Part shown: in pieces, positions 1-27,523 of the stretch | Layout of the letters: every line of letters starts with the position of its first letter | Numbering within the stretch: position 1 is the first letter of the stretch | Source of the DNA: Dehalococcoidales bacterium | GTDB taxonomy: Bacteria; Chloroflexota; Dehalococcoidia; Dehalococcoidales; GCA-2688105 | Assembly: GCA_030640255.1 (NCBI GenBank) | Contig: DAOWJS010000006.1 | Location: 1-33,812 of the forward strand | Length of the DNA stretch: 33,812 nucleotides | Reading direction: 5' to 3' | The notes under the pieces: generated by a model | Databases searched by the model: none | Seen by the model: only the letters and a program-made list of their open reading frames with translations | Told to the model about the DNA's origin: nothing | Translations under genes and position numbers: made by a program

Positions 1-180
1 CATAAGGTCGTGTAAAAAGTCCTCTCTATCCTCTCTCTTGACCTTGTGGACAAAGTATCGGGCTATCCTATAATAGGTAAGCCAGTCGCCAGTAAGCTGG
101 TCGTAACCGTTATTGTGGTAACCATTACCATTGTCTTGATACTGGTCAATAACCGTGTTATACTCGCCTATGTCTAGCAT
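1..180 (-). CDS. hypothetical protein, first 60 codons only (gene runs off the left edge)
   Basis: Unbroken minus-strand frame from ATG at 180-178 to the window edge (MLDIGEYNTVIDQYQDNGNGYHNNGYDQLTGDWLTYYRIARYFVHKVKREDREDFLHDLM...). All + frames carry stops. It is absent from the ORF track, probably because it is cut by the window edge. The REDREDFLHDLM end faintly resembles the start of sigma-70 region 2 but is too short to call. Confidence 0.35.
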   Translation of the reverse strand, partial: MLDIGEYNTVIDQYQDNGNGYHNNGYDQLTGDWLTYYRIARYFVHKVKREDREDFLHDLM

Positions 181-207
181 TGTGAGTTGACCTCCAGTGC
201 CTAGATT

Positions 208-247
208 TGCCCTAGCTTGGCTAATCACTGGCTAGGGCATTTTATTT
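208..247 (+). other. perfect hairpin TGCCCTAGC-N14-GCTAGGGCA followed by TTTTATTT; either a +-strand terminator-like element or an operator upstream of the minus-strand gene at 1-180
   Basis: 9-bp perfect inverted repeat at 208-216 / 231-239 with a T-run at 240-247. A further CCCTAG half-site lies at 249-254. No + strand gene lies upstream, so function is ambiguous. Confidence 0.4.
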
Positions 248-316
248 ACCCTAGACTAGGCAAGCGTTCAGGTTTGGCTTTTACCGATATTCAATTGTTA
301 AGGTGCTAGGAATATC

Positions 317-325
317 TGCTATAAT
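317..325 (+). promoter_or_regulatory. candidate extended -10 promoter (TGcTATAAT) facing the ORF-poor block
   Basis: TGCTATAAT at 317-325 is a perfect TGnTATAAT match. A TTGTTA lies at 295-300, but the 19-nt spacing is poor. The predicted start near 331-333 would transcribe 330-850 on the + strand. Confidence 0.35.
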
Positions 326-329
326 AAGT

Positions 330-464
330 ATGCTTTACAAAAGAGCCTTTAGAAAAGAAAAAGAAGTAGTTACTTTTTTGATAAAAGATAAAATGCTAAA
401 ATCAGCTTGGAACTTGAGAATTGAGCCTCGCCCCTACCAAAGCGACGCAACTGATTGGGCTTGA
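330..464 (+). CDS. possible 44-aa leaderless small ORF (very uncertain)
   Basis: ATG at 330 to TGA at 462-464 (MLYKRAFRKEKEVVTFLIKDKMLKSAWNLRIEPRPYQSDATDWA). There is no SD and it starts only 4-5 nt after the -10. No domain was recognised. It is below the ORF-track length cut-off. Confidence 0.15.
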   Translation: MLYKRAFRKEKEVVTFLIKDKMLKSAWNLRIEPRPYQSDATDWA

Positions 465-758
465 GCACAGAGGCAGGCAGTCTGATTGTCGGGGCAGTCT
501 AAACTCCCCAGCCAGATTATGGCACCTCACCGGAACCCGTCAGGTCTATTCTAGCCCAAGCCGCAGACTCACTGGCCCTCGGGAAATAGAATACAAGCCA
601 ATTTGTGCAGCAGTTAACCAAAACCCCATTATATATAAATATCCCATTCAAAAGCCCGGAAAGGGAGCTAAAAATTGATTCTAGGGCTTGAGAGCAAGGC
701 TTGTGCAGGAGCCGCCGTGCTAACAAACGCCTTGGCAAAGGAAGGAGCCTTGCCAGTG

Positions 759-786
759 TAGTCCAAGTTAGTCCAGCCCAGTCCAA
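759..786 (+). repeat. three helically phased (10-bp spacing) direct repeats of (T/C)AGTCCA
   Basis: tAGTCCAag ttAGTCCAgc ccAGTCCAac at 760, 770 and 780. Related AGTCTG/AGTCTA hexamers occur at 480, 496 and (inverted) 564. Confidence 0.5.
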
Positions 787-850
787 CCGATTTCATGTGT
801 CCCACATTCCCCCTGTTTAGGCAAATGTCAAACTTCCCTAATTTTCCCAT

Positions 851-1027
851 TTAGGTAGTTATCAAATTACCTAAAGATGGTATTACCTGAATTTTACCTG
901 CAGGTAGTTACCTAATTACCTTACCTAAATACCACCGCAGGTAATTACCTGAACTACCTTACCTAAATTACCTGCAGGTAGTTACCTAAAAAATTTACCA
1001 GAACTATTTACCAAATACCTAGGTAAT
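851..1027. repeat. dense array of TACCT/AGGTA half-sites forming five palindromes and a 21-bp direct repeat; candidate recombinase/replication/partition protein binding array
   Basis: Five palindromes: TTAGGTA-N10-TACCTAA (851-874), TACCTGCAGGTA (895-906), CAGGTAATTACCTG (938-951), TACCTGCAGGTA (969-980) and TACCTAGGTA (1016-1025). TTACCTGCAGGTAGTTACCTA is repeated exactly at 894-914 and 968-988, 74 bp apart. At least 12 TTACCT copies occur in ~180 bp. Confidence 0.8.
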
Positions 1028-1294
1028 TAACCAGCATCTTGGCTGAATAAAAGAGGAGGGGTTAGTATTAGAGTATGAAGTCAGGAACCAAGGTCTATAT
1101 CGCTCGCGAGGGTGGAGGCTAATGACCTCAGCAGGCTAGGCTTGTCCCGACCCGCCCAAGAAGCTTTCCAGATTACCACCATTAATATTCGTAGGAGCAT
1201 GGGGTGGCTTATGGTGGCTCTAGTTAGGAGGTAGCATTCTATTGTTGGGCATGTGTGTCGTTATACGCTTCAACTGTCCTATCACCGAAGATTG

Positions 1295-1741
1295 TCAACC
1301 AAACTCAGGGTGGGCTGCCCTCACCGGGTCTTGCCATCCGACCTCCTCAGCTTTCCCTTTGTCAGTCAGGCGATAGAACACGCGCTGCTCCAGGAAGTCG
1401 TAGATGGCCGGCTCCCGCCTATCTGTCGGTTCCACCAGGCCAAGCAGCTTGAACCAGTGAAAGTAGCGCGAAAACGAACTGTAGTTTGGCCTTTTGTAGG
1501 CTCTTTCCCCTATCTCAATTCTTTCTTCGTTTAGGTGTGCTATCTCGTCACTAAGAGCACGGTAGATGTCGGCAGCACAGGCCTCACCGTGCTCGACAAA
1601 ATACAGTTTTGTGAAAAGGCCAGGCCTATACAGACTGGCGCCTCTTCCCCAGGGGACAGCTATGCGCAGAGGATTCTGGTGTTGTTTTTCCTTTTTAGGC
1701 TCTTTCTTTGCCCTTGTAATCTTTGGTCTCTGTCGTCTCAT
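1295..1741 (-). CDS. winged-helix-like DNA-binding protein with Lys/Arg-rich N-terminal tail
   Basis: ORF 1295-1774, with starts possible at ATG 1741 or 1774. Both overlap the 3' end of the upstream recombinase gene. The tail RRQRPKITRAKKEPKKEKQ is followed by an HTH-plus-wing pattern (ADIYRALSDEI...SSFSRYFHWFKLLGLVE...RVFYRLTDKG). The family was not identified. Confidence 0.55.
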   Translation of the reverse strand: MRRQRPKITRAKKEPKKEKQHQNPLRIAVPWGRGASLYRPGLFTKLYFVEHGEACAADIYRALSDEIAHLNEERIEIGERAYKRPNYSSFSRYFHWFKLLGLVEPTDRREPAIYDFLEQRVFYRLTDKGKAEEVGWQDPVRAAHPEFG

Positions 1742-2447
1742 CTTCTTTGTTTTGCCACAGTTTCTCGTATTCACATCTCAGTTGCTCGAGGTTAGAATCG
1801 ACATATTCCATAGTCGTAGATATGCTGGCGTGGCCAAGCAGCACTTGGAGTTTCTTTGTATCGAGACCTTGGCTTACCCACATCGTAGCCAGCAAATGGC
1901 GCAGACTGTGAGGATGTAGTCCCTTTATCCCTATCCGCCGGCCGAGCTTCTCAACCAGTTGCCAGCCGCGTTGGCGAGTGAATGGAAATACTAGCGGCCC
2001 GCGATAAGGAAATTTACGCCGCCATTGCAGATATTCATGTAGCAGTCGTAAAGTATAACGGTCAACAGGTATCGTTCGCTGTCGCCGTTGCTTGACCTTC
2101 TCGCGTAGAGCCTGGTCTACCTTATTCCCACAACCTGGGCAGAAGAGATGCCGTTTACCTAAAATCTCGCCACAGTTGGGGCATTTCAGTTTCAACCGCT
2201 CTTTCAAGCGTACAATGGTTAAAGTTCCCCTTTTAGAGTCAATGTCACCTTCCTTCAGTTGGATGGCTTCAGAAATGCGTATCCCGTCCCTCGCTAGTAC
2301 GGCAATAAAAGCCTTATCCCTGGGGTTGAGGGCGGCGGCGATGAGCCTCTTCTGCAGCTGCTCAAGCTCAAAGTATCCTTTTAGGTCGCGTATCGAAGTA
2401 ACCTGTGTCATCCAATTAACCTCGTCCTTGCTCTTCAGTGGTTTCAC
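1695..2447 (-). CDS. tyrosine recombinase (Rec1), catalytic domain only, with internal 4-Cys zinc ribbon
   Basis: Motifs present: DGIRISEA (Arg I), HPHSLRHLLAT (HxxR), LLGHASISTTMEYV (His, Tyr). Insert is CPNCGEILGKRHLFCPGCGNKV. The likely start is ATG 2411 (GAGG 8 nt upstream) rather than GTG 2447. Confidence 0.85.
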   Translation of the reverse strand: MKPLKSKDEVNWMTQVTSIRDLKGYFELEQLQKRLIAAALNPRDKAFIAVLARDGIRISEAIQLKEGDIDSKRGTLTIVRLKERLKLKCPNCGEILGKRHLFCPGCGNKVDQALREKVKQRRQRTIPVDRYTLRLLHEYLQWRRKFPYRGPLVFPFTRQRGWQLVEKLGRRIGIKGLHPHSLRHLLATMWVSQGLDTKKLQVLLGHASISTTMEYVDSNLEQLRCEYEKLWQNKEDETTETKDYKGKERA

Positions 2448-2568
2448 CAGATGTTTTATACAGCATTAGGCGAATACAGTGGGGAGATATCAGTTGGCCG
2501 GCTCTCCCCTTTCTATCTTCTACGTCTACCAAAACCTCGGCCTCCGCATTGCCTTCGTGACTGGCTCA

Positions 2569-3339
2569 TTACACCTTTACTTTGACACTAAACGGTAAAA
2601 ATTGTGTGTTATTGTGACTATGCAGACACCACAGCCTGTTATACCATTGACGGTGCTCTTCCCCGGCAACCTTTCGGTATCTGGCTGTGGTATTAAAGCT
2701 GGCATGTCCTAGATGCTCCTGAAGCAACCTGAGCCCATCACCGGAATCATCCACCTTCATCGCATGAACGCTGAAGGCATCCCTGAGGCGATGAGGACTG
2801 ACACCCCTTAGCCTCCCCGTTTCAGGGTTAACCAGGGATGGCAGCCCAGCCCGTCTGGCACAGTCCCTTACTATCTGCCACGCACGGTGTCGGTTGAGAC
2901 TGAAGAGGGGCGACTTGCTATCGCTTGAGCTCAGTTCATGGATATAGCACTTGATCATCTCAAGGGTGATTTCGTCAACAGGCAACACCCTGATGCGTCT
3001 TCTTTCCTGCTGACTTCGTATAGTCGCACTGACCTTAACCCCGCATCCGGGGCAGAACTGATGCTGACTGCCCAACCGCGTTTTACAGCTGGGGCAGCAG
3101 AGCTTTAAGCTTCTCTTTAGATGTAGGATTGTGATGGTGTTTTGCTGGAAATCTACGTCCTCTACTTTAAGGGCAAGTACTTCCGATATCCGGCACCCCA
3201 GACGGGAAAGCAGTCTGATGAGTAGCCTATCTCTCCGAGAACCTGCAACTCCCTCCATCAGTTCTATATCAGCCAATTCAAGATACGCTTTCATTTGTGG
3301 GCACTTCCAGAGAATTCTTGATTCGGCGCTTAGCCTCAA
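2569..3339 (-). CDS. tyrosine recombinase (Rec2), catalytic domain only, with internal 4-Cys zinc ribbon
   Basis: Motifs present: LGCRISEV, SPHRLRDAFS, HLGHASFNTTARYRKV. Insert is CCPSCKTRLGSQHQFCPGCGVKV. The TTG at 3339 is doubtful; ATG 3294 (MKAYLELADIEL...) is the more likely start. Confidence 0.85.
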   Translation of the reverse strand: MRLSAESRILWKCPQMKAYLELADIELMEGVAGSRRDRLLIRLLSRLGCRISEVLALKVEDVDFQQNTITILHLKRSLKLCCPSCKTRLGSQHQFCPGCGVKVSATIRSQQERRRIRVLPVDEITLEMIKCYIHELSSSDSKSPLFSLNRHRAWQIVRDCARRAGLPSLVNPETGRLRGVSPHRLRDAFSVHAMKVDDSGDGLRLLQEHLGHASFNTTARYRKVAGEEHRQWYNRLWCLHSHNNTQFLPFSVKVKV

Positions 3340-3484
3340 GGTATCTTCGCTTCATGGTATCCCGGCTAACATATTCGCTGGTCAACTCGCGATATACTTC
3401 GGCCATCTTCGACCAGCCGAGATTCTGGCCATCACGCAAGCGCAAAACTATAGCAAAATCCACAGAGAGTCTTGGCCTACCCAT
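3278..3484 (-). CDS. small resolvase/Hin-type helix-turn-helix protein
   Basis: MGRPRLSVDFAIVLRLRDGQNLGWSKMAEVYRELTSEYVSRDTMKRRY matches the GRPR...G.S...IA....VSR.T..RR pattern of HTH_7-like domains. Its ATG overlaps the Rec3 stop by 8 nt (ATGGGTAG), suggesting translational coupling. Confidence 0.6.
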   Translation of the reverse strand: MGRPRLSVDFAIVLRLRDGQNLGWSKMAEVYRELTSEYVSRDTMKRRYLEAKRRIKNSLEVPTNESVS

Positions 3485-4208
3485 TTCTATCCTTTCGGTG
3501 ATGACGACCGGTTTTGCTTAATATTTGGTCTATCCTGTAACCTCTCAGCTTTCTTATACCCATTTGGTCAACCGGGGATAGCGTCTTACCATTTATCAAA
3601 GCCTGACTCGAAGCGTAGTGCACATACCGACGCACCATTTCGAGGTTATTGTGGCCCAGTATCTGTTGTAATCGGAAAACATCTCCGCAGTTGTGGATGA
3701 GGTAATTGGTGGCAAAGGTGTGACGACACAAATGAGCGTGTAATCTTGGTACGCCCGCCTTCTTGCCCCAGCGTCTAATCAATAATTTGACTGCGTTGGC
3801 TCGCAACGGTTTACCATCGAGGGTGAGGAGGAGATAGTTATCGGCTTTGACCAGGGGTTCAGGACGAAAGTGAATAATATCCCGCCAGAGCATCTTCTGT
3901 GCCGATGCGCCAATAGGTACTATTCTCTCCTTACCTCCCTTGCTCATGACTTTCAAATAGCCTTGCTCAACATGGGCATCTTCGAAACGCAAACCACAAA
4001 GCTCACTGAGTCTGACCCCAGTATCGAGCATGACTATCAGGATAGCTATATCACGGCAGCCAATAGCAGTTAATGGATTTTGACAGTCAACTAGCTGGTC
4101 TAAATGTTCCTTCAGGAGCTGTGGAATTTCGTCAGAGAATGGGTGGCTTGACGAAAGGTCATTGTGAGTGCTATCGTTATTCATAGGAGCTACTCTCTTC
4201 GGCGCCAC
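3477..4208 (-). CDS. tyrosine recombinase (Rec3), canonical catalytic domain, no N-terminal core-binding domain
   Basis: Motifs present: TGVRLSEL, SKGGKERIVPI (Lys hairpin), HLCRHTFAT, ILGHNNLEMVRRYVHY. Only ~25 aa precede the catalytic domain. The start is GTG 4208 or ATG 4184. Confidence 0.88.
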   Translation of the reverse strand: MAPKRVAPMNNDSTHNDLSSSHPFSDEIPQLLKEHLDQLVDCQNPLTAIGCRDIAILIVMLDTGVRLSELCGLRFEDAHVEQGYLKVMSKGGKERIVPIGASAQKMLWRDIIHFRPEPLVKADNYLLLTLDGKPLRANAVKLLIRRWGKKAGVPRLHAHLCRHTFATNYLIHNCGDVFRLQQILGHNNLEMVRRYVHYASSQALINGKTLSPVDQMGIRKLRGYRIDQILSKTGRHHRKDRNG

Positions 4209-4419
4209 CAGTTAGAGCATCTTCCGCGGGAGCTTGACAGGGTGGCTTTCCTTTTTCAGCATTCGCTGGGTTCCCTTTTGATCGCAAGGCATCCCTCGCT
4301 GCCGCCTTCAGCAGAATGTCGATGACGCGGGAGAGCCTCGCACTACCATCAGGAGTAGCGACATGACGTATGCTTACCACTAGGCGTTTTTGATTTTGCT
4401 TACCTTGCTTTTTAGGCAC
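4177..4419 (-). CDS. small basic hypothetical protein upstream of the recombinases
   Basis: GTG start at 4419 preceded by GGAGAGGTAAGGCGGA. N-terminus is MPKKQGKQNQKR, followed by VVSIRHVATPDGSARLSRVIDILLKAAARDA and a low-complexity C-terminus. It overlaps the Rec3 start. No family was recognised. Confidence 0.4.
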   Translation of the reverse strand: MPKKQGKQNQKRLVVSIRHVATPDGSARLSRVIDILLKAAARDALRSKGNPANAEKGKPPCQAPAEDALTGGAEESSSYE

Positions 4420-4517
4420 TCCGCCTTACCTCTCCATTGCCGACCACCAGCTCACAACCTCGGCCAGCCTCACCACCGAAAGGAGCGGGGCGGCGATAAG
4501 TCATTCTAACTGTTAGT

Positions 4518-4706
4518 TTATTTGCCGATTTCCGCTTTGCCATCGCCTTGTCTTTTCAACGGGCGGATGGTTAGTTCGCCGTCCGCAATCATCTCCAGCC
4601 TGTCGCCTGCCCTCAGCCCATAGTATTCCGCCCAGCCCTTGGGGACTGTTACTACGAGCCCACCCTTGCCCATCCTTATCAGACTTCTGCGTAGTAAGGT
4701 CGGCAT
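4518..4706 (-). CDS. AbrB/SpoVT (MazE-like) swapped-hairpin DNA-binding protein
   Basis: GLVVTVPKGWAEYYGLRAGDRLEMIADGELTIRP is the typical SpoVT-AbrB pattern. ATG at 4706 has GAGGTGA 5-6 nt upstream; the track ORF extends to GTG 4715. Confidence 0.75.
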   Translation of the reverse strand: MPTLLRRSLIRMGKGGLVVTVPKGWAEYYGLRAGDRLEMIADGELTIRPLKRQGDGKAEIGK

Positions 4707-4775
4707 ATAACTCACCTCTTGCCTGTTTCTATGAACAATGCTAGACTAAGCTCAAAAGACAGAACAGAGGGAGTT

Positions 4776-5438
4776 ATGTCCATATCTGACGTATTGAGGA
4801 GAGGCATTGCTCTCACGCCTTTAGAGGTCCAGGTCTTTGAGAGCGAGTACATTCGGAAAGTTCAGGAATATCCTTCTGTCGCTGCGAGGTGCGGCGGATA
4901 CTTACTCAAGGTTTACGAGCGCATAAGAAAGATAGAGCAAAACTGCAACGTATGGCGTCAAGGTCATGTCGTCTTGTTACGAATGGCTTTGGACTTGGAT
5001 GAGAACTCCCTTGATAAGATACTTCAAAGCAGCCATTTGTGGCTTAGCGCAGTGAACTTTGGACAAGCAGGGGCTCCGTTCGTGAACCGCTACTTCATAG
5101 CTATCAAGCTCCTGATAGGGGTGCCAGAGAGGGTCGTCGTGGCAGAGGAGGTCAGGCGTCACCTGGACGTGACCCGCCTGTGGCACTGCCGGGTCTGTGG
5201 GTATGAGTGGGAGAGCAGGGGACAAGCGATTTGCCCCAGATGTGAAAGCAAGGATGCGAAAAACCTCCCAATTGGAGCGAAGGAGATAAAGCAGGCCGAG
5301 GTAGCTGCCCACAAGAGGGTTCAACGGGCGAGAGACTTAGCCAAGATTCTGTGCTTGTACTTTATTCGCGGTTTTGTCAAAGAGGTCACCGAAAAAGCGG
5401 TGCCCGCTGATGCTTCATGCTGGGTCAGAGTCAAATGA
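4776..5438 (+). CDS. hypothetical protein with C-terminal CxxC...CxxC zinc ribbon
   Basis: ORF 4719-5438. Candidate starts are ATG 4776 (GAGGGAG just upstream) or ATG 4731. The ribbon is CRVCGYEWESRGQAICPRCES. It is divergent from the AbrB gene with a ~70-nt shared control region. No known domain was recognised in the N-terminal 140 aa. Confidence 0.5.
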   Translation: MSISDVLRRGIALTPLEVQVFESEYIRKVQEYPSVAARCGGYLLKVYERIRKIEQNCNVWRQGHVVLLRMALDLDENSLDKILQSSHLWLSAVNFGQAGAPFVNRYFIAIKLLIGVPERVVVAEEVRRHLDVTRLWHCRVCGYEWESRGQAICPRCESKDAKNLPIGAKEIKQAEVAAHKRVQRARDLAKILCLYFIRGFVKEVTEKAVPADASCWVRVK

Positions 5439-5533
5439 GCAACCTAGACAAGCGGCTCGGGAAATAAGCTGGTTGGGCGGCGTGATGTCTCTCATTGCAA
5501 GTGAACCAAGCGTTGCCTCTAACTAAATCGTGA

Positions 5534-6367
5534 ATGGAGTCTAGGAGGTCTGACATAGTAGAAAGCGCTGGCAAAGACCTACCTCAAGAAGAGCAGTTTA
5601 TTCAACGAATCAAATCGCTGAGGTCGGAGGATGTTAACCATATGGGAGCCATCATAGGGCAAGCCGGAATAGGCAAACTGAGGCGAACCGACCGCTACTA
5701 TCCATTGAGATTCCTTGCGGACGGTATCGATGCCTATAGGTATGGTTTTGACAATGCGGTTGTTTTCTATGCGGGAACGGCTTTGGAACTAGCGTTACTG
5801 GCTTTGTTGCGAGACATAATAAAGCAAGAACGGCAGCGAAACCCCAAGCTTCATGTGGATTTCAAATGGCTAATAGACCACTCTGGAAACCTGCTGGACG
5901 AGGCGGGAACGAATCTGTGCCACAAAGTTCGGATAATGAGGAATTGTTACATTCACTATGAGAACATAGTGGCTCATATTGCTTGGATGCAAGAGGTCGA
6001 TTGGCCCGAAAAGAGGGAAGAGGAGAAGGCAAAGCTTGGAAATGACCCCGAAGCAGTAAAATTCATTGACTCGCTTACTCAATTAATGGATGACCTGTAT
6101 AGCAGAGAGGGAATGTTGCCAATTCGCTTTGAACATCTGGAAACAAATAGGGAAGTAATGTCGTTTATTGAAAATCGATACAAGCAGTATATGAACTGGC
6201 TACCCCAGGCTTGGTCTTCCAAGAAGCGAGAACTCACCAGAGAAGAGTTCGATAACATCTATAGCATTGAGGCTTTTGACGCTCTGCATTGCATAACTTG
6301 GGTTTCCGAAGTCATTAGGAAACTGAATCTTATCTCCTTTTCTGGTCAGCCAGTACTGCTAGAGTGA
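5534..6367 (+). CDS. HEPN-domain (DUF4145-like, RNxxxH) protein, possible RNase toxin / abortive-infection effector
   Basis: A helical segment AVVFYAGTALELALLALLRD is followed ~45 aa later by KVRIMRNCYIHY, with R136-N-x3-H141 encoded at 5939-5956. This matches the Rx4-6H HEPN signature in its usual context. The ~130-aa C-terminus is unassigned. An alternative start is ATG 5642. Confidence 0.55.
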   Translation: MESRRSDIVESAGKDLPQEEQFIQRIKSLRSEDVNHMGAIIGQAGIGKLRRTDRYYPLRFLADGIDAYRYGFDNAVVFYAGTALELALLALLRDIIKQERQRNPKLHVDFKWLIDHSGNLLDEAGTNLCHKVRIMRNCYIHYENIVAHIAWMQEVDWPEKREEEKAKLGNDPEAVKFIDSLTQLMDDLYSREGMLPIRFEHLETNREVMSFIENRYKQYMNWLPQAWSSKKRELTREEFDNIYSIEAFDALHCITWVSEVIRKLNLISFSGQPVLLE

Positions 6368-6602
6368 ACGGAATGTTGTGATTATTGATTGTTGCAGGCC
6401 GACGCCTTCACTCTAATAACAAATGCCACCAACTGTAACTGACGAGGAAGTTCTCTAGGTAGTGTCACCTTCTGCTCTCATGAGGTCAGTCCAGAAACCG
6501 GTTAAGCTCTAAACGCTACGTCGCCTTGATTGTTTAGCGAGGGGTTTTATTAGGACAAGGCGAAGAGATTCTGGAATCTGTAAGGGTGTATCAATTGCAT
6601 CC

Positions 6603-6817
6603 AATCCCCCTCCCTTGATAAGGGAGGGGGAACGAGGTGTGTAAGAGAGGCTTCGCCTCTCTTTGACTCTCCCTTAGTATTGCCTCTCTTTGGACTCTCC
6701 TTTAGGAATTTATTAAGGAGATTTTTTATCAACCTCACCCCCTGTGTCCCCCTCTCCTTCAAAGGAGAGGGGGAGGAGTAGTTGGTGAAGGGGCGAAGCC
6801 CCTTCCAACTACTCCTC
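6603..6817. repeat. cluster of GC-rich perfect hairpin modules (REP/MITE-like dispersed palindromic repeat family), copy A
   Basis: Hairpins at 6606-6630 (11-bp stem), 6644-6662 (AGAGAGGC-TTC-GCCTCTCT), 6748-6773 (12-bp stem CCCCCTCTCCTT/AAGGAGAGGGGG) and 6773-6817 (~21-bp stem). The modules recur in inverted orientation at 33662-33752. Confidence 0.85.
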
Positions 6818-6969
6818 ATGTTTATCTTAGTCTGCTCCTTATCTAACGTACCATATTATCATCGCTCAACCTGAAGTTCAACGACACTTCGTCAAGAGTT
6901 GCAAACTAGCAAACAACATGGCGCTCTGTTGCCAATGAAATACAGCCTCTTCATGTTGCTAGCCATTAG

Positions 6970-6998
6970 TTGCACACCTTAGGCTTTATTGCTACAAT
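6970..6998 (+). promoter_or_regulatory. candidate sigma70-type promoter for the + strand AsnB paralog
   Basis: TTGCAC (6970-6975), 17-nt spacer, TACAAT (6993-6998), ~125 nt upstream of ATG 7124. Confidence 0.4.
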
Positions 6999-7123
6999 AT
7001 CCCACCTAAGCGTATTATTGAAATTTTACCATGAAAGACAGGCATGGATGACCTCAGGAGAAGAAATTTGGAGACAAATAGGAGAGCATGGTCGCTAAAG
7101 ATTAACTTCAGGAAGAAGGAGCA

Positions 7124-9040
7124 ATGCCCGGAATCTGTTGCCTAGCTGGAGAAGTTTCCAATCAACAAAATTCGCTGCAGTCTATGGCTGAGTCAATAAA
7201 ACATGAAGACTGGCACCTGGTAGATATGTATAGTGCTCCCGTCTGCGGCATTGCCCGCGTCCACCTGGGGATATTTAACCCTGAGCCACAGCCCATTTTT
7301 AATGAGGATAAGAACCTGTGCATCTTTTTTGACGGCAAGATTTATGATTATGAAGACAAAAAGAGGGACTTACGGCGTCTGGGACACAGTTTTCGTTTGA
7401 CTGATAACGATGCCGAGTTTTGCCTGCACCTGTATGAAGAGTTAGGCAAGGACTTTGTAAAGCAACTAAACGGCACTTTTACCATTGTAATTTATGATAG
7501 TAAGCAGCAGAAGTTGCTGGTGGTAAATGACCGCTATGGGTTGAGACCCCTCTACTATGCCACAGACCACAACCGGCTGCTAATTGCCTCTGAGGTAAAA
7601 GCCCTGCTACAAATTGAGCCACGTAGCAAACTAAATGATGAGGCTATAGCTGACTGGTTTTACTTCGGCAAACTCCTGGGGAATAAGACCTTCTTCAAGA
7701 ATATTAACGTTCTATCACCAGCCTCTATTCTGGAATACCAGGATGGCAAATTAAACATAGAAAAATATTGGGACTTTGAATTTAACCAGGCGACTAATAT
7801 TAGCCAGGATGAGCTGGTCGAGGGACTGGTCAGCTCCTTTAGAAAATCTGTAGCCAGACGATTAACCGGCAGCCATCGCTATGGTCTTGGTTTGAGTGGA
7901 GGATTAGACTCAAGGGCAATTGCCGCCGCCATGGGTGACACTGCCTCTCGGGTAACCGCCTTCACCTTTGGCGTAAGGGGCTGTGATGAGGCAAGGATAG
8001 CCCATACCATTGCCCAGAAATTGGGCATGGAACATCACATTATTGAGTTAAACCCAGATGAGCTTCCCCTTTATTTCAAGGACGTAGTTTATCTCACTGA
8101 TGGCATGGATTACATCGGGGTCAGCTTTCTGCCTATAGCCTACGGGGAATATAGAAAACATATAGATGTGCTTTTCCAGGGGTTGGAAGGCGATGTGCTA
8201 CTTGGCGAGTATTACCTTAATAGTAACCTACTGCAGGCAAAGGGCGAGGAGGAGATTACTCGGGCCTTATACCGTAGCACCTGCACTTTCCCGGAGAATA
8301 TGAGGATTAATCTTATAAAACCAGCTTATTACAGTAGAATAAAAGACATGCCGTTAAACTCGTTAAGGGACGAGCTGCAGCAGACGCGGGGAGGTCAACC
8401 GGGAAATAGAGCCACTCATTTTGCTATTCGCAGTGTCATCTGGCGGACTGACCTCATGGGCTGCGTTATTGGTCGAAACAAGGTAGAGGAGGCGTATCCC
8501 TTTTTTGACAATGACTTTATTGATTGGGTGCAGAGGATACCCCCTGACCTTCGCCTAAACCATCAAATCTATCGCCAATTTTTGAAGAAACTTTCCCCCA
8601 CCTTGGCTGGGGTGACTCGCCAGCTGACCGGGGTTCCGGCGGACGCTCCCTGGTTCCTATCAAAAATAGGGATATATTATCAGCAGAGTAAAATAGCCCT
8701 AAAACTACTACTATACGAACTATCAGCACGGAATATATATATTCGTAATACCTTCGGCTATCAATCCTTGGATGAACTCTTCTTAGTCAATGAGAATTGG
8801 CGTAAAGCTGTCGAGGATATAATAGCCGACGAATTTGCTTTATCAGGGGAATATCTCGACATGGATTACGTTAAACGACTTTTAGATGACCATGGTAAGA
8901 TGCTGCCACCGTGGCAAGTGACCAGACAAAAGAGGTTTACGGCTAATTATTCAACGCCATTAAGTTTTATTGTAGCCTTTGAACTCTTTCTCAGGTTATT
9001 TGTCAAGAACCCTGTTAGCCAAGGCTCTTATCCTCATTAA
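7124..9040 (+). CDS. asparagine synthetase (AsnB) family amidoligase with degenerate glutaminase domain
   Basis: Strong RBS (GAAGGAGCA ATG). The synthetase PP-loop is intact (GLGLSGGLDSRAIAAAM). The N-terminus is MPGICC, not MCG, and the NGE glutamine-binding triad is replaced (FFDGKIYDY versus VFNGEIYNY in the paralog at 14729). Confidence 0.85.
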   Translation: MPGICCLAGEVSNQQNSLQSMAESIKHEDWHLVDMYSAPVCGIARVHLGIFNPEPQPIFNEDKNLCIFFDGKIYDYEDKKRDLRRLGHSFRLTDNDAEFCLHLYEELGKDFVKQLNGTFTIVIYDSKQQKLLVVNDRYGLRPLYYATDHNRLLIASEVKALLQIEPRSKLNDEAIADWFYFGKLLGNKTFFKNINVLSPASILEYQDGKLNIEKYWDFEFNQATNISQDELVEGLVSSFRKSVARRLTGSHRYGLGLSGGLDSRAIAAAMGDTASRVTAFTFGVRGCDEARIAHTIAQKLGMEHHIIELNPDELPLYFKDVVYLTDGMDYIGVSFLPIAYGEYRKHIDVLFQGLEGDVLLGEYYLNSNLLQAKGEEEITRALYRSTCTFPENMRINLIKPAYYSRIKDMPLNSLRDELQQTRGGQPGNRATHFAIRSVIWRTDLMGCVIGRNKVEEAYPFFDNDFIDWVQRIPPDLRLNHQIYRQFLKKLSPTLAGVTRQLTGVPADAPWFLSKIGIYYQQSKIALKLLLYELSARNIYIRNTFGYQSLDELFLVNENWRKAVEDIIADEFALSGEYLDMDYVKRLLDDHGKMLPPWQVTRQKRFTANYSTPLSFIVAFELFLRLFVKNPVSQGSYPH

Positions 9041-16602: not shown

Positions 16603-18609
16603 CTATCTGATAAAACCACTGACTGAGCCACAATCATAGACTTTATGAAATCCCTGCTCGGCAAGCACCTGCCGAGGGTCATAATTCAGCTTGTAGTAAC
16701 TCCCCGAGCCGGTTCCAAAAGGATGGTTCACGATTTCATCCCTGATGAGAAGCATGTCGGAAGAACACTGACCGAAATCTCGGTTTATCAGACAAGACTG
16801 TATCCATTCCAGCTTATCTTTCAACTCAGTAAGCAGCTCCGGCGTGAGCCGAATCATTCTATAATAGCCGTCGACGCCTATAGTTCCCTCATAATTAGCT
16901 GAGAGGGTCTGCACCGCCTGCGATTCAGAAGTGGTAAGGGCAAAACGAACCACCTGATTCTGGGAAAAAGTCCGATTAGTCTGGTTAGAGGGAAAACCTA
17001 TAATAGACAGGAAGGTCAGAACAAAAATCAAAACTATCACCAAGCTAGCCTTGAAATACCTCTTGTTAAACAGCCCGAATAAGAGGGAAAAGGTTACCGC
17101 CAGCGGGATAGATAATAAAATCTCCGCCATATACCACCACCTATGTTCAATAACAGAACGACCGGTTAGCATGGGGAAATAGCCAATGCCCAGAATCAAT
17201 ACCCCAGCGATGGCTATAAAGAAAGCATAAGGATTACCAAATCTCCTGGAGAGCATATAAAAGCCGCCGATGAAAGACGCGGCAAAAAATAGGAGCATGC
17301 CCAAACTGTTAAATAAGAATTCAAATGGGGCGCTGGAAAGCGTCTCAGTTGCTGGCGGTGTAGGCTCTGGTGGTGCAACCTCTGGAGGTGTAACCTCTGG
17401 AGGTGTAGTCTCTGGAGGTGTAGTCTCTGGTGGTGCAATTCCTGATGGTGCCAAGCTCGGGGCGTAGGTAAGCCCTGCGCTGGGTGCAAAACCGTGCCTT
17501 GCATGGTAGATTAAGCCCTGGATATTTCCTGAACCAAAAGTCCACCAGCCAAACATGGCAACAGTAAAGATAAGAGCTACGCCAGCCAAAAGAGGAAAGG
17601 TAGCTAGCTTCTCTTTATAGAGTTTTTTATAAAACATGAGGCTTAACCAGAAAGTAATCAGCAATAAAGCCAGCCAGAGTGTGGCTATGACATGGGTCAG
17701 GAGCAGAGACACCATGAGCAGCCCGCAAAGGGGGATTACTATAGGGGCTTTATCTTTATGGAACTTGAGGACTAGGTAGAGGATGATAACTACTAAAGTG
17801 GCTCCTAGCCCGTTGGGGACAGTCCAATAGCCGAAGAAGATATACCAGTTAGCTACTCCCATCAGTAAGGCAGCTAGCATGCCAATCTTGGCATTGAACA
17901 GGAGCCTGCCGATAAGGAAGATAAATAGCACGTTACAAACTGCCTGCAACAAGGAAATGGAAAACATGGCAGCCATCTTGTAACCCAGTCCAGTTATTAA
18001 TGAGGTTGCCCCGATGGTAAGGTGCATAATCGGTAACTTCGTATAGATACCACCTTCAATGTGTCCTGCATTTATCCACCCCACTGTAGTCAGCCGATGC
18101 ATCCAGGTGTCCATCCCGACCATGTCGGGGAATAAAAGTAGGACTGACCATTGCAAGCTTAAGGCAATAAGGATTATTTGAAATAAGGTAAAAGGTGTCG
18201 GTGAGTTTTTAGATGGTAGAAACAATATCTTAGCTGCCAAAATGGCACTCATCGCGGCTATTGAGATGAAGTATTCCAGGGGTCTTACGTATAGTTCGGT
18301 TCGGAAGGCAAAAGACCACAAGCTATAGGTAAAAAGGGCAAAGAATACGATGTCTAAAAGCAATAGGATAGATGGCGTGGCTTGAAAATCTAGGATTGAG
18401 GGAATATCTAGTAACCTCCGGCGCTGCTTTAAGACCAGATAAGCAGCACAAGCGACAAAGGCGAGGATGGCAGCGAGGGTATAGGTAAGATGTCCTATTT
18501 GGATTTGGAGATAGGCGATTAAAACGAGAGAGAAAATAGCACCGATTGAGGCTAAAGTGCTATCTAGATTATCTCTGATGAAGGGTAACACCTTACTTCT
18601 AGAGTTCAC
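16603..18609 (-). CDS. polytopic membrane protein (about 13 or more TM segments) with Pro/Thr/Glu repeat loop; possible GT-C type glycosyltransferase/polymerase
   Basis: 668 aa, hydrophobic throughout, with a ~130-aa soluble C-terminus. Central loop is [31 protein letters not shown]. It is the first gene of the glycan operon. No WWDxG or other diagnostic motif was seen, so the family call is inference from architecture and context. Confidence 0.6.
17350..17454. repeat. 15-bp tandem repeat (5 clean plus 2 degenerate units) encoding PPE(T/V)(T/A) units
   Basis: CTCTGGAGGTGTAAC-type units at 17365, 17380, 17395, 17410 and 17425. Units 3 and 4 are identical. Confidence 0.9.
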
Positions 18610-26081: not shown

Positions 26082-26222
26082 GAGGGAAAATTTAATAGGA
26101 AGCTTGGAGGTGCCTGAGACGATTCAGGCGTAACCGGAGAGCAAGTCGGTGAAAATCCGACGCAGTACCGCCTACTGTGACTGGTAATCTTACCAGAAGC
26201 CAGAACGCCGGGCCTCTGTGTA
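26082..26222 (+). promoter_or_regulatory. cobalamin (B12) riboswitch aptamer
   Basis: Core is GTCGGTGAAAATCCGACGCAGTACCGCCTACTGTGA (GGTGnnAAnnCC...CCGCnACTGT), followed by a B12-box-like GAAGCCAGAACGCCGGGCC. It sits upstream of btuCD and cob genes. Confidence 0.85.
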
Positions 26223-26278
26223 TCCTATAACTTCCGCGGAGAAAGGGGAGTGGGATAAATAGCCAGAGCCTGGTGATG

Positions 26279-26431: not shown

Positions 26432-27523
26432 ATGACCTTGCATCAGCTTAAGCCATCTTTCACGGAGCAATCTGTGCCTATCCATTTCCCTCACTGGCGC
26501 GGTCGCATATATGCTATTTTGGGACTTTTAGTCGCCTTTGGAGCCATAGTGGTATTTGCCACAGCTGTCGGCAGTGTTCAAATTCCGTTCTCCACTATTT
26601 GCCGAATTCTGTTTTCAAAGCTGCCCTTAGTCGAGATAAATAACCCTGCCTGGCCTGGAACCTTGGAGACCATAATACTGGAAGTACGCTTGCCCAGGGT
26701 TATTCTGGCGGGGCTGGTAGGGGGTGCTCTAGCCTTAGCCGGGGCTACCTACCAGGGGCTCTTCCGTAATCCACTGGCTGACCCCTACCTTATCGGTGTG
26801 GCTCAAGGGGCGGCGCTGGGAGCCGTTGTTGGCTTTTTACTCCCATCCACCTGGCATGGTATGGGTTTCGGGATTATTCCCGTACTCGCCTTCATCGGGG
26901 CACTGGTTAGCACCACTATTGTCTATAGTTTAGCCCGGGTAGGCAAAACCTTACCCGTAACCACCCTTATTCTAGCCGGCGTGGCTTTGGGAGCGCTTTT
27001 GGCGTCAATCGTTTCCTACCTCATTATTTCCAGCGGGGAGAAGATGCACGGAATTATATTTTGGCTAATGGGTAGCTTTTCCTTGAGCCGGTGGTCAGAG
27101 GTAGGGGTGGTTCTTCCCTATGTGGTGGTGGGGGTAGTAGTCATCTTGCTTTATGCTCGCTCGCTTAATGTAATGCAGCTTGATGAGGAGCAGGCTCAGC
27201 AGCTAGGAGTCAATGTGGAAAGGCTCAAGCTGGTTCTTCTTGCCGCCGCTACCCTGATTACGGCGGCCGCGGTTTCTTTCGTAGGCACCATTGGATTTGT
27301 CGGTATCATCGTCCCTCATGCTGTGCGTCTGATATGGGGGCCAGACCACCGTTTCCTGCTACCTTTGTCTGTCCTTACCGGCGCCATTTTTCTAATTCTG
27401 GCTGATGTAATAGCGCGCACCATTCTGGCGCCTACGGAGATACCGATAGGGGTAATCACTGCCATCGTTGGAGCCCCCTTCTTCCTTTACTTATTGCGGC
27501 GTAGAAAGAGGGTAATTTTCTGA
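26432..27523 (+). CDS. btuC: ABC transporter permease, FecCD/BtuC family (corrinoid uptake by context)
   Basis: 363 aa, about 9-10 TM. Motifs RLPRVILAGLVGGALALAGATYQGLFRNPLADPYLIGV and GVITAIVGAPFFLYLL. Under the B12 riboswitch. Confidence 0.85.
   Translation: MTLHQLKPSFTEQSVPIHFPHWRGRIYAILGLLVAFGAIVVFATAVGSVQIPFSTICRILFSKLPLVEINNPAWPGTLETIILEVRLPRVILAGLVGGALALAGATYQGLFRNPLADPYLIGVAQGAALGAVVGFLLPSTWHGMGFGIIPVLAFIGALVSTTIVYSLARVGKTLPVTTLILAGVALGALLASIVSYLIISSGEKMHGIIFWLMGSFSLSRWSEVGVVLPYVVVGVVVILLYARSLNVMQLDEEQAQQLGVNVERLKLVLLAAATLITAAAVSFVGTIGFVGIIVPHAVRLIWGPDHRFLLPLSVLTGAIFLILADVIARTILAPTEIPIGVITAIVGAPFFLYLLRRRKRVIF

Follow-up and report, generated by a model that had tools for sequence, protein, structure and literature searches.

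To our knowledge, all structurally understood tyrosine recombinases encircle their DNA with a core-binding domain and a catalytic domain. FimB and FimE are small enzymes of ~200 aa (amino acids) that consist essentially of the catalytic domain and rely on accessory DNA-binding proteins. The standard classification of tyrosine recombinases mentions neither a zinc-ribbon insert nor a class without the core-binding domain; it describes beta-stranded β2-β3 insertions in the Tn916 and BPP-1 groups, and an insert in Tn1549 Int that shapes the DNA substrate (PMC8138268). Several tyrosine recombinases can also be encoded side by side, as in RIT elements. These span ~3.5 kb, occur in alpha- and beta-proteobacteria and carry full-length genes of three distinct families that overlap by 4-8 bp (PMC3414803, PMC8138268), with two core-binding domains in RitA and an extra C-terminal helix in RitC (PMC8138268). 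Here, we describe a cluster of three tyrosine recombinase genes (Rec1, Rec2 and Rec3) at one end of a 33,812-nt stretch of DNA from a Dehalococcoidales bacterium (assembly GCA_030640255.1, contig DAOWJS010000006.1, positions 1 to 33,812), which we refer to as the window. Rec1 and Rec2 are short enzymes without a core-binding domain that carry a four-cysteine ribbon beside their catalytic lysine, whereas Rec3 is the truncated remainder of an ordinary integrase. The best explanation of the whole, and one we favor with modest confidence, is that window positions 1-6667 represent the eroded front of a small Dehalococcoidales integrative element with active accessory short recombinases.

The cluster contains six open reading frames (ORFs) on the minus strand, all of which lie where an earlier note on this DNA had placed them: a small basic ORF (4419-4177), Rec3 (4208-3477), a 68-aa protein (HTH68, 3484-3278), Rec2 (3339-2569), Rec1 (2447-1695) and a 148-aa protein that we call the partner (1741-1295). 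All three recombinase translations show the R / HxxR / H / Y signature, and each of them matches PF00589 (cut-off 27.1 bits): Rec1 with an E-value of 6.9e-28 (98 bits), Rec2 with 1e-16 (61.6 bits) and Rec3 with 7.6e-33 (114 bits). As these matches start only ~30 residues in (at about residue 28-33), the window copies have a catalytic domain and no N-terminal core-binding domain, which agrees with what the note had read from the letters. Judged from homologues, the true starts are likely ATG 2411 for Rec1 (238 aa, 1695-2411) and ATG 3294 for Rec2 (241 aa, 2569-3294), within ORFs that extend to GTG 2447 and TTG 3339, respectively. In a pairwise comparison, Rec1 and Rec2 are 35% identical.

Rec1 contains an insert, K70-R110 (2082-2204, minus strand; residues are counted from the ATG at 2411), which, according to alignment and model, consists of an invariant lysine, a ribbon with four cysteines (C77, C80, C91 and C94) and a basic helix. 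A hidden Markov model (HMM) alignment to XerD positions this insert between β2 (..VIGK) and β3 (KGNKERLVPL). Likewise, the AlphaFold model of Rec1 has β2 at residues 63-67, the ribbon at ~70-99 (knuckles at ~75-97), a helix at 100-109 and β3 at 111-115, with a predicted local distance difference test score (pLDDT) of 76.6 overall and 74-86 across the insert. The earlier note had located the ribbon at the hairpin that bears the catalytic lysine, and structure prediction bears this out, with the ribbon sitting in the β2-β3 hairpin. The ribbon does not stand in for the lysine, however, as the note had supposed: K70 (HLK motif) precedes it in 40/40 aligned family members. In alignment and model, the ribbon emerges from the turn of the hairpin, right behind this invariant lysine, which is kept. 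The same 40-sequence alignment shows two CxxC knuckles with the spacing of a ribbon, their cysteines C77, C80, C91 and C94 being invariant (40/40), as are R45, K70, R171 and Y203, with H168 and H194 conserved in at least 90%. This retained R-K-H-R-H-Y set suggests that Rec1 and Rec2 are catalytically competent. With their PF00589 match, RKHRH pentad and tyrosine nucleophile they have the hallmarks of the tyrosine recombinase superfamily, except for its N-terminal core-binding domain.

Zinc-ribbon models match inside both enzymes (PF13248 in Rec1, E-value 3.2e-05; DZR in Rec2, 0.0024), and the Rec2 ribbon spans C67-C84 (nt 3043-3096, minus strand). The Pfam scores for the ribbon are sub-threshold (23.7 vs 27 bits) and consistent with a PF13248/PF12773-like ribbon. 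The insert is strongly basic (14 K/R among 45 residues), and the ribbon may bind zinc and contact DNA. A fold search with the Rec1 model returned only ordinary Xer, Int and Cre structures, with XerA, XerD and XerH (5hxy, 4a8e, 1a0p and 5jk0) as the best matches in the PDB.

This architecture holds across the family. Homologues of ~225-231 aa with 70-95% identity number in the hundreds for Rec1 and in the thousands for Rec2; they originate from groundwater, sediment and subsurface metagenomes and from Chloroflexota metagenome-assembled genomes, where they are annotated only as 'XerD' or 'tyrosine-type recombinase/integrase'. For Rec1, these include hundreds of proteins of ~230 aa with 75-87% identity. 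Of the Rec1-like and of the Rec2-like matches, 119/120 each contain the CxxC...CxxC pattern, compared with 0/120 Rec3-like matches; it also occurs in 39/55 full-length representatives after clustering at 50% identity, and the family signature reads TIxHLKxRxKLxCPxC...FCPxCG. No SAM-like domain was matched in Rec1, Rec2 or 240 close homologues. Rec1 and Rec2 are thus genuinely devoid of a core-binding domain, with a ribbon in the β2-β3 hairpin throughout. Searches of Pfam, NCBIfam, PDB, BFVD and the literature did not return a characterized family with this architecture. Annotated phage and plasmid records contain no close relatives, only ordinary integrases with <33% identity. Apparent ribbon recombinases among genome-collection matches from Clostridia, Bacteroidota and Methanomassiliicoccales were discarded, as they are unrelated membrane double-zinc-ribbon proteins. 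Enzymes that lack the core-binding domain, bear a ribbon at their catalytic hairpin and come with a fixed small partner appear undescribed in the resources searched. Within the panel of 148 related loci that was used for synteny (identified by L numbers), one Rec1-type gene (L071, 6983-7710) lies in two reading frames and is broken at the ribbon-coding region, by a frameshift or as a pseudogene.

Rec3 (3477-4208, minus strand; 235-243 aa) has a different history. Its relatives are full-length integrases of 328-351 aa with SAM-like N-domains (PF13495/PF02899), and a 91%-identical full-length relative (P0241) aligns to the window by tblastn with residues 110-328 only, from nt 4136, where homology begins, to 3480. 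None of the frames of the window matches residues 1-109 of this relative, which also disposes of the idea that the small basic ORF is the Rec3 N-domain displaced by a frameshift. This 80-aa ORF (4177-4419, minus strand) overlaps the new start of Rec3 and is, according to similarity searches, unlike the lost N-domain; a relative with 51% identity lies directly upstream of a Rec1-type gene in L045. A 235-aa truncated Rec3, together with the basic ORF and the 68-aa protein, also occurs in a second assembly, and the recurrence of this identical form indicates that the truncation is real and inherited. The earlier note had taken Rec3 to be naturally restricted to its catalytic domain, a view it would have given up had longer N-terminal domains come to light. 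They do in the relatives of Rec3, and the window copy is short through a 5′ deletion. Rec3 would then be the remnant of the element's ordinary full-length integrase, with the core-binding domain gone along with the tRNA attachment end next to it.

Erosion is also evident from a sister strain (L149, GCA_044240385.1), which shares a block of 4,596 nt at 98.2% identity (window 6667-2080, corresponding to L149 398-4993), including the small basic ORF. Outside this block, the two sequences are wholly different on both sides. In L149, Rec1 is cut right after the ribbon and the partner gene is gone; an Oxidored_FMN gene comes next, followed by host genes. With Rec1 halved in the sister strain, the cluster in the window is best seen as eroding. 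On its left, the shared block ends among GC-rich hairpins resembling repetitive extragenic palindromes (window ~6560-6800) and not at an attachment (att) site. In the window itself, the c250 and c271 genes seen in related elements are absent: the partner gene is followed by a 1.1-kb ORF-poor gap and then by the 5′ part of a cargo gene of the c132 family (1-180, minus strand; tblastn matches to L004_208 with 67% and L030_260 with 51% identity), which leaves the contig at its end. Two plus-strand genes also lie in the shared block, divergent from the minus-strand run: one at 4719-5438 (239 aa, with a rubredoxin-like CxxC...CxxC ribbon at its C-terminus) and one at 5534-6367 (277 aa, no matches), the latter being split in the sister strain.

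The earlier note had presented the three recombinases as a trio of catalytic-domain-only enzymes. Such a trio as a designed unit is not supported, as the relatives of Rec3 are full-length and the three genes are not co-conserved across the panel. Two conserved units emerge instead: a Rec1-type gene with its ~148-aa protein, and a full-length integrase with the 68-aa protein and a Rec2-type gene. In L030 and L033-L035, the nearest Rec2-type genes come after those for a full-length Rec3-type integrase and for the 68-aa protein, with overlaps as in the window. Most loci carry a single short recombinase, located behind a tyrosine integrase of one of four families or behind a large serine integrase. 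The only intact trio, in L086, consists of a full-length integrase next to a tRNA-Lys gene, a Rec2-type enzyme and a third short recombinase (210 aa, plain hairpin, no cysteines), followed by a partner gene; its first member is thus full-length and its third lacks the ribbon. That a partner also follows this ribbon-less enzyme shows that the partner, as well as the loss of the core-binding domain, is independent of the ribbon. The trio as such does not constitute a new system.

A rival explanation close to the trio idea is that enzymes of the Rec2 and Rec1 types work as a heteromeric pair, XerC/XerD-like or TnpA/TnpB-like, which would, together with the first integrase, make up a true trio acting on one site. 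A tandem of Rec2-type gene, Rec1-type gene and partner does recur in eight loci, in which the Rec2-type proteins are 64-96% and the Rec1-type proteins 38-85% identical, and its junctions differ in length and sequence (gaps of 5-139 bp with divergent sequence in the junction alignment). The gene order in L086, beside its tRNA-Lys gene, and the preservation of catalytic residues in all members point the same way. Yet the single short recombinase of most loci is at odds with an obligate pair, as the tandem occurs in only 3/22 Rec1-type loci with adequate upstream sequence (the split single gene of L071 being excluded), and the third member is ribbon-less in both L086 and L090. Moreover, Rec3 is truncated in the window and Rec1 in the sister strain with the rest kept, and the genes do not overlap in the manner of RIT elements: the gap from the Rec2 stop to the Rec1 start measures 121-157 bp, and the HTH68 gene sits between Rec3 and Rec2. 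In the window, the Rec2-Rec1 spacer (2448-2568) includes a ~120-bp piece that is shared with L080 and absent from L036 and L037. Taken together, we consider a heteromeric pair or trio very unlikely.

The association between Rec1-type enzymes and the partner is far tighter. The partner gene (1295-1741, minus strand) overlaps the 3′ end of Rec1 by 47 nt, and a ~148-aa protein follows directly after Rec1-type genes, in overlapping frames, in 35/36 non-redundant loci. Behind the more distant Rec2-type genes, a remote relative of the partner is found downstream in 16/31 cases. The protein is conserved (64-75% identity, 63 invariant columns) and combines a very basic N-terminal tail (12 K/R in the first 35 residues) with a helix-rich core and a C-terminal β-hairpin. 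One idea, that the partner is a detached core-binding domain, was rejected at the sequence level (HHalign probability 0.1%), and the partner has no sequence matches in the PDB. HTH68 (3278-3484, minus strand) overlaps the stop of Rec3 as well as the start of Rec2, belongs to a cluster of 18 members and has copies with 66-75% identity in the same position, between a full-length integrase and a Rec2-type gene, in L030 and L033-L035. It is possibly an excisionase-like or regulatory helix-turn-helix (HTH) protein. The earlier note had called these two proteins a winged-helix protein and a resolvase-type HTH protein and had proposed that DNA recognition may be outsourced to them. Neither label is established, the sole support being a weak NCBIfam match of HTH68 to a YneB-resolvase C-terminal model (E-value 0.0047), with no Pfam or PDB matches. 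The broader part of that proposal holds up better, as the presence of the ~148-aa protein with overlapping frames in 35/36 loci makes a dedicated DNA-binding partner plausible.

How would such elements enter the chromosome? In complete elements, a different recombinase is encoded next to a tRNA gene. It is a full-length tyrosine integrase, from four unrelated families, in L001, L004, L031, L057, L084, L086, L088, L094, L097 and L114. A 515-aa large serine recombinase takes this tRNA-adjacent position in at least nine loci, L119 and L120 among them. In L119, the serine recombinase (110-1657, minus strand) is followed by a ~300-aa regulator-like protein; the same pair is seen in L107, L091, L052, L104, L106, L101, L120 and L122. 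Among the 37 loci with at least 2 kb of sequence upstream of the first short recombinase, 18 have a full-length tyrosine integrase there, nine have a large serine integrase, one (L149) has only the truncated Rec3, and in nine none was detected. Rec1-type and Rec2-type elements share the same cargo, which is either an HTH/coiled-coil protein with a ~270-aa protein or c132 with a beta-clamp-like protein and c98. The beta-clamp-like protein (403 aa; L001 9147-10358, with homologues in ~15 loci) matches PF02768 (1.8e-09), PF02767 (2.5e-08) and phrog_947. A gene of the DNA polymerase III beta-clamp type is unusual cargo for an integrative element of 7-9 kb.

As the integration module is interchangeable and the short recombinase is part of the conserved core, the short recombinase is arguably not the chromosomal integrase. 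We propose that chromosomal integration would be carried out by a separate, interchangeable tRNA-adjacent integrase (from one of the four tyrosine families, or of the large serine type). The core operon would be headed by the short recombinase, followed by the ~148-aa basic partner and then by HTH/coiled-coil proteins or c132, the beta-clamp-like protein and c98. The short enzymes may act as active accessory site-specific recombinases on a site within the element, where they would either resolve multimers of the excised copy (a circle that possibly replicates) or invert a segment as a switch. The DNA face that is usually clamped by the core-binding domain could be covered by the ribbon, projecting from the DNA-contacting hairpin, together with the separate partner. 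No convincing att-like direct repeats were found at the edges of compact elements, nor terminal repeats or circularity in IMG/VR contigs.

Several observations weigh against this proposal. In nine of the 37 loci, no other integrase was found upstream, and the short recombinase of L005 and L058 has host genes no more than ~650 bp upstream (both contigs end soon after), so that it could itself be the integrase there. Diverged loci repeat the tandem of a Rec2-type and a Rec1-type gene, which could mean a functional pair rather than accretion. A recombination product (circle, inversion or deletion) was not seen, and no contig shows candidate segments in the alternative orientation. The single-sequence AlphaFold model of the partner has a pLDDT of 41.7 and is unusable. 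That the ribbon binds zinc and touches DNA is deduced from sequence and topology, and the candidate site discussed below is not conserved in sequence between elements.

The first of these points belong to a competing explanation, in which the short ribbon recombinase and its ~148-aa partner are the integrase and excisionase of the core element; the upstream integrases would come from other elements or be exchanged modules, and the cluster in the window would be a tandem accretion of three element heads. This would account for a unit of short recombinase, partner and cargo that stands behind at least five unrelated integration genes, or behind none (9/37), and that abuts host genes in L005 and L058. 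Two full-length integrases in tandem ahead of the short one (L085, L097 and L114) are what accretion predicts, and the truncation of Rec3 here and of Rec1 in L149 fits the decay of piled-up elements. The linkage between integrase and short recombinase is operon-like, however, with gaps of 32-33 bp in L085 and L097 and an HTH68 gene that overlaps both its neighbors. Compact, host-bounded elements hold both enzymes and little else (~3.7 kb in L033, ~5 kb in L031), the tRNA-adjacent integrases would be left without cargo of their own, and the short recombinase is never the tRNA-proximal gene. For these reasons, we regard the short enzymes as unlikely to be the integrases and return to an accessory role on an element-internal site.

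The best candidate for such a site in the window would be the AGGTA/TACCTGCAGGTA array, which lies in the ORF-poor gap behind the partner gene. Between 840 and 1035, 17 AGGTA/TACCT pentamers occur within 196 bp, where 0.74 are expected (P ~9e-18), and the palindrome TACCTGCAGGTA occurs twice (at 895 and 969). This array is a candidate protein-binding or recombination site. Its AGGTA motif is confined to the window and was not seen in the related loci. At the same relative position, some of these have arrays or palindromes of another sequence, namely a ATGATAACT array in L004 (9263-9468) and an 18-bp palindrome in L046 and L073. Such differing motifs are as expected for co-evolving protein-DNA specificities.

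A second candidate is an inverted pair of ~27 bp, AAAGCC-N4-CCTGAACGCTTGCCC, which flanks c132 in all c132-c403 elements. It was located in L001 (8203-8226 and 9176-9199), L113 (2503-2519 and 3304-3320) and ~20 other loci, and with one arm in the window. The motif map of the 148 loci places its upstream arm, AAAGCC-N4-CCTGAACGCTTGCC, at 259-281 of the window (minus strand), and one arm of the pair falls within codons ~10-20 of the beta-clamp-like gene. This raises the possibility that the short recombinases are FimB/FimE-like invertases, flipping, for example, the ~0.9-kb c132 segment between the 27-bp arms and thereby switching the beta-clamp-like gene. Like FimB and FimE, they are short and lack a core-binding domain, and in NCBIfam they score weakly against a tyrosine invertase model (PRK09871, 4.9e-13, far under the cut-off). 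The strong conservation of the pair in every c132-c403 element, with one arm preserved in the window, would fit as well, as would the occurrence of the c132-c403 module in both orientations relative to the Rec1-type gene (L001 vs L042, L051 and L056). What speaks against inversion is that c132 and c403 keep a single relative orientation in the contigs (~12 loci), and that the differences between the arms are mostly G.U-compatible or compensatory, hinting at long-range RNA pairing rather than a recombination site. In addition, one motif would have to serve both Rec1-type and Rec2-type elements, whose enzymes are only 35% identical, and c250-c271 elements have a recombinase and no motif. With no alternative orientation seen and arm differences that look RNA-compatible, we do not favor the inverted pair as an invertible segment, and consider the invertase explanation as a whole quite unlikely. 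The AGGTA array remains the preferred candidate.

Beyond the cluster, the window is an ordinary Dehalococcoidales chromosome with a glycosyltransferase cluster, RtcB, a class I tRNA synthetase and a cobalamin riboswitch. The recombinase cluster lies at the very end of the contig, and the ENA scaffold is only 45 nt longer. At the head of the minus-strand run, a gene at 4518-4715 (minus strand) encodes an AbrB/MazE-like small DNA-binding protein (PF04014, 6.7e-08), a 40%-identical relative of which is encoded directly upstream of a Rec2-type gene in L095. No tRNA genes were found in the window, and searches with Rfam on positions 1-7200 (E-values up to 1) and with PADLOC gave no matches. Farther along, the cobalamin riboswitch (RF00174, 37.9 bits; 26091-26231, plus strand) lies 5′ of a run of plus-strand genes that starts at 26432. 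A 668-aa ORF (16603-18609, minus strand) without a Pfam match (E-values up to 1e-5) ends the glycosyltransferase/asparagine-synthase cluster.

What the short enzymes may represent goes beyond this locus. It is possible, although on balance we doubt it, that they are a new tyrosine-recombinase build, in which the clamp is replaced by a zinc ribbon on the lysine hairpin and a translationally coupled DNA-binding subunit, and which performs a second, element-internal reaction in undescribed tRNA-integrating, beta-clamp-encoding Dehalococcoidia elements. A family of thousands of sequences would then show how an insert and a separate subunit can share the tasks of recognizing a site and clamping the DNA, which would be of interest for recombinase mechanism and for the engineering of compact or retargetable recombinases. 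Dehalococcoidia are important members of subsurface and dehalogenating communities, and the short enzymes mark an unannotated family of small integrative elements among them. The cluster in the window is itself a decaying remnant, and its 'trio' is no new machine.

Compared with described systems, the cluster in the window resembles RIT elements and Tn554 in having several tyrosine recombinase genes in the same orientation on a mobile element. Going by the descriptions of RIT elements, it differs in that its members are short or truncated, that small genes are interleaved, that a gap of 121-157 bp separates Rec2 from Rec1, and that the trio is not inherited as a unit. Tn554, likewise compared by description, encodes TnpC besides a pair of full-length recombinases, of which TnpA has N-terminal β-strands and an inter-domain helix, whereas the window enzymes lack N-terminal domains; the nearest plasmid match annotated as 'Tn554-related transposase A' is 30.8% identical, in the catalytic domain only. 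Rec1 and Rec2 are not members of RIT or Tn554. Nor is the Dehalococcoides IME1 element of a recent preprint a match, being a different type of element with a conventional XerCD-family integrase. The integron integrase model TIGR02249 scores 42-44 vs a cut-off of 265 bits, and the insert found here is a four-cysteine ribbon at β2-β3. FimB and FimE have no ribbon, and their models stay far below their cut-offs (PRK09871, 49.1 vs 222 bits; PRK09870, 42.1 vs 221). In the Rec1 model and the XerD alignment, the ribbon occupies the same topological insertion site as the inserts of IntTn916/Tn1549 and IntBPP-1. IntTn916 and IntBPP-1 have arm-binding and core-binding domains and an insert that is a β-hairpin without metal ligands, whereas Rec1 and Rec2 start ~30 residues before the catalytic domain. 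Closest in sequence and fold of the catalytic domain are the Xer recombinases (XerA, XerD and XerH) and Cre, which share the full RKHRH-Y set (XerA model NF040815, 1e-30), although the Xer equivalog cut-offs are not reached (XerA 107.3 vs 220 bits, XerD 84 vs 329.6, XerC 83 vs 335). The role we propose, resolution at a site near the gene, would be Xer/Cre-like as well. Unlike Xer, the short enzymes lack a core-binding domain, carry a 40-residue insert of ribbon plus helix, are encoded on mobile elements with many copies per metagenome, and come with a dedicated small partner.

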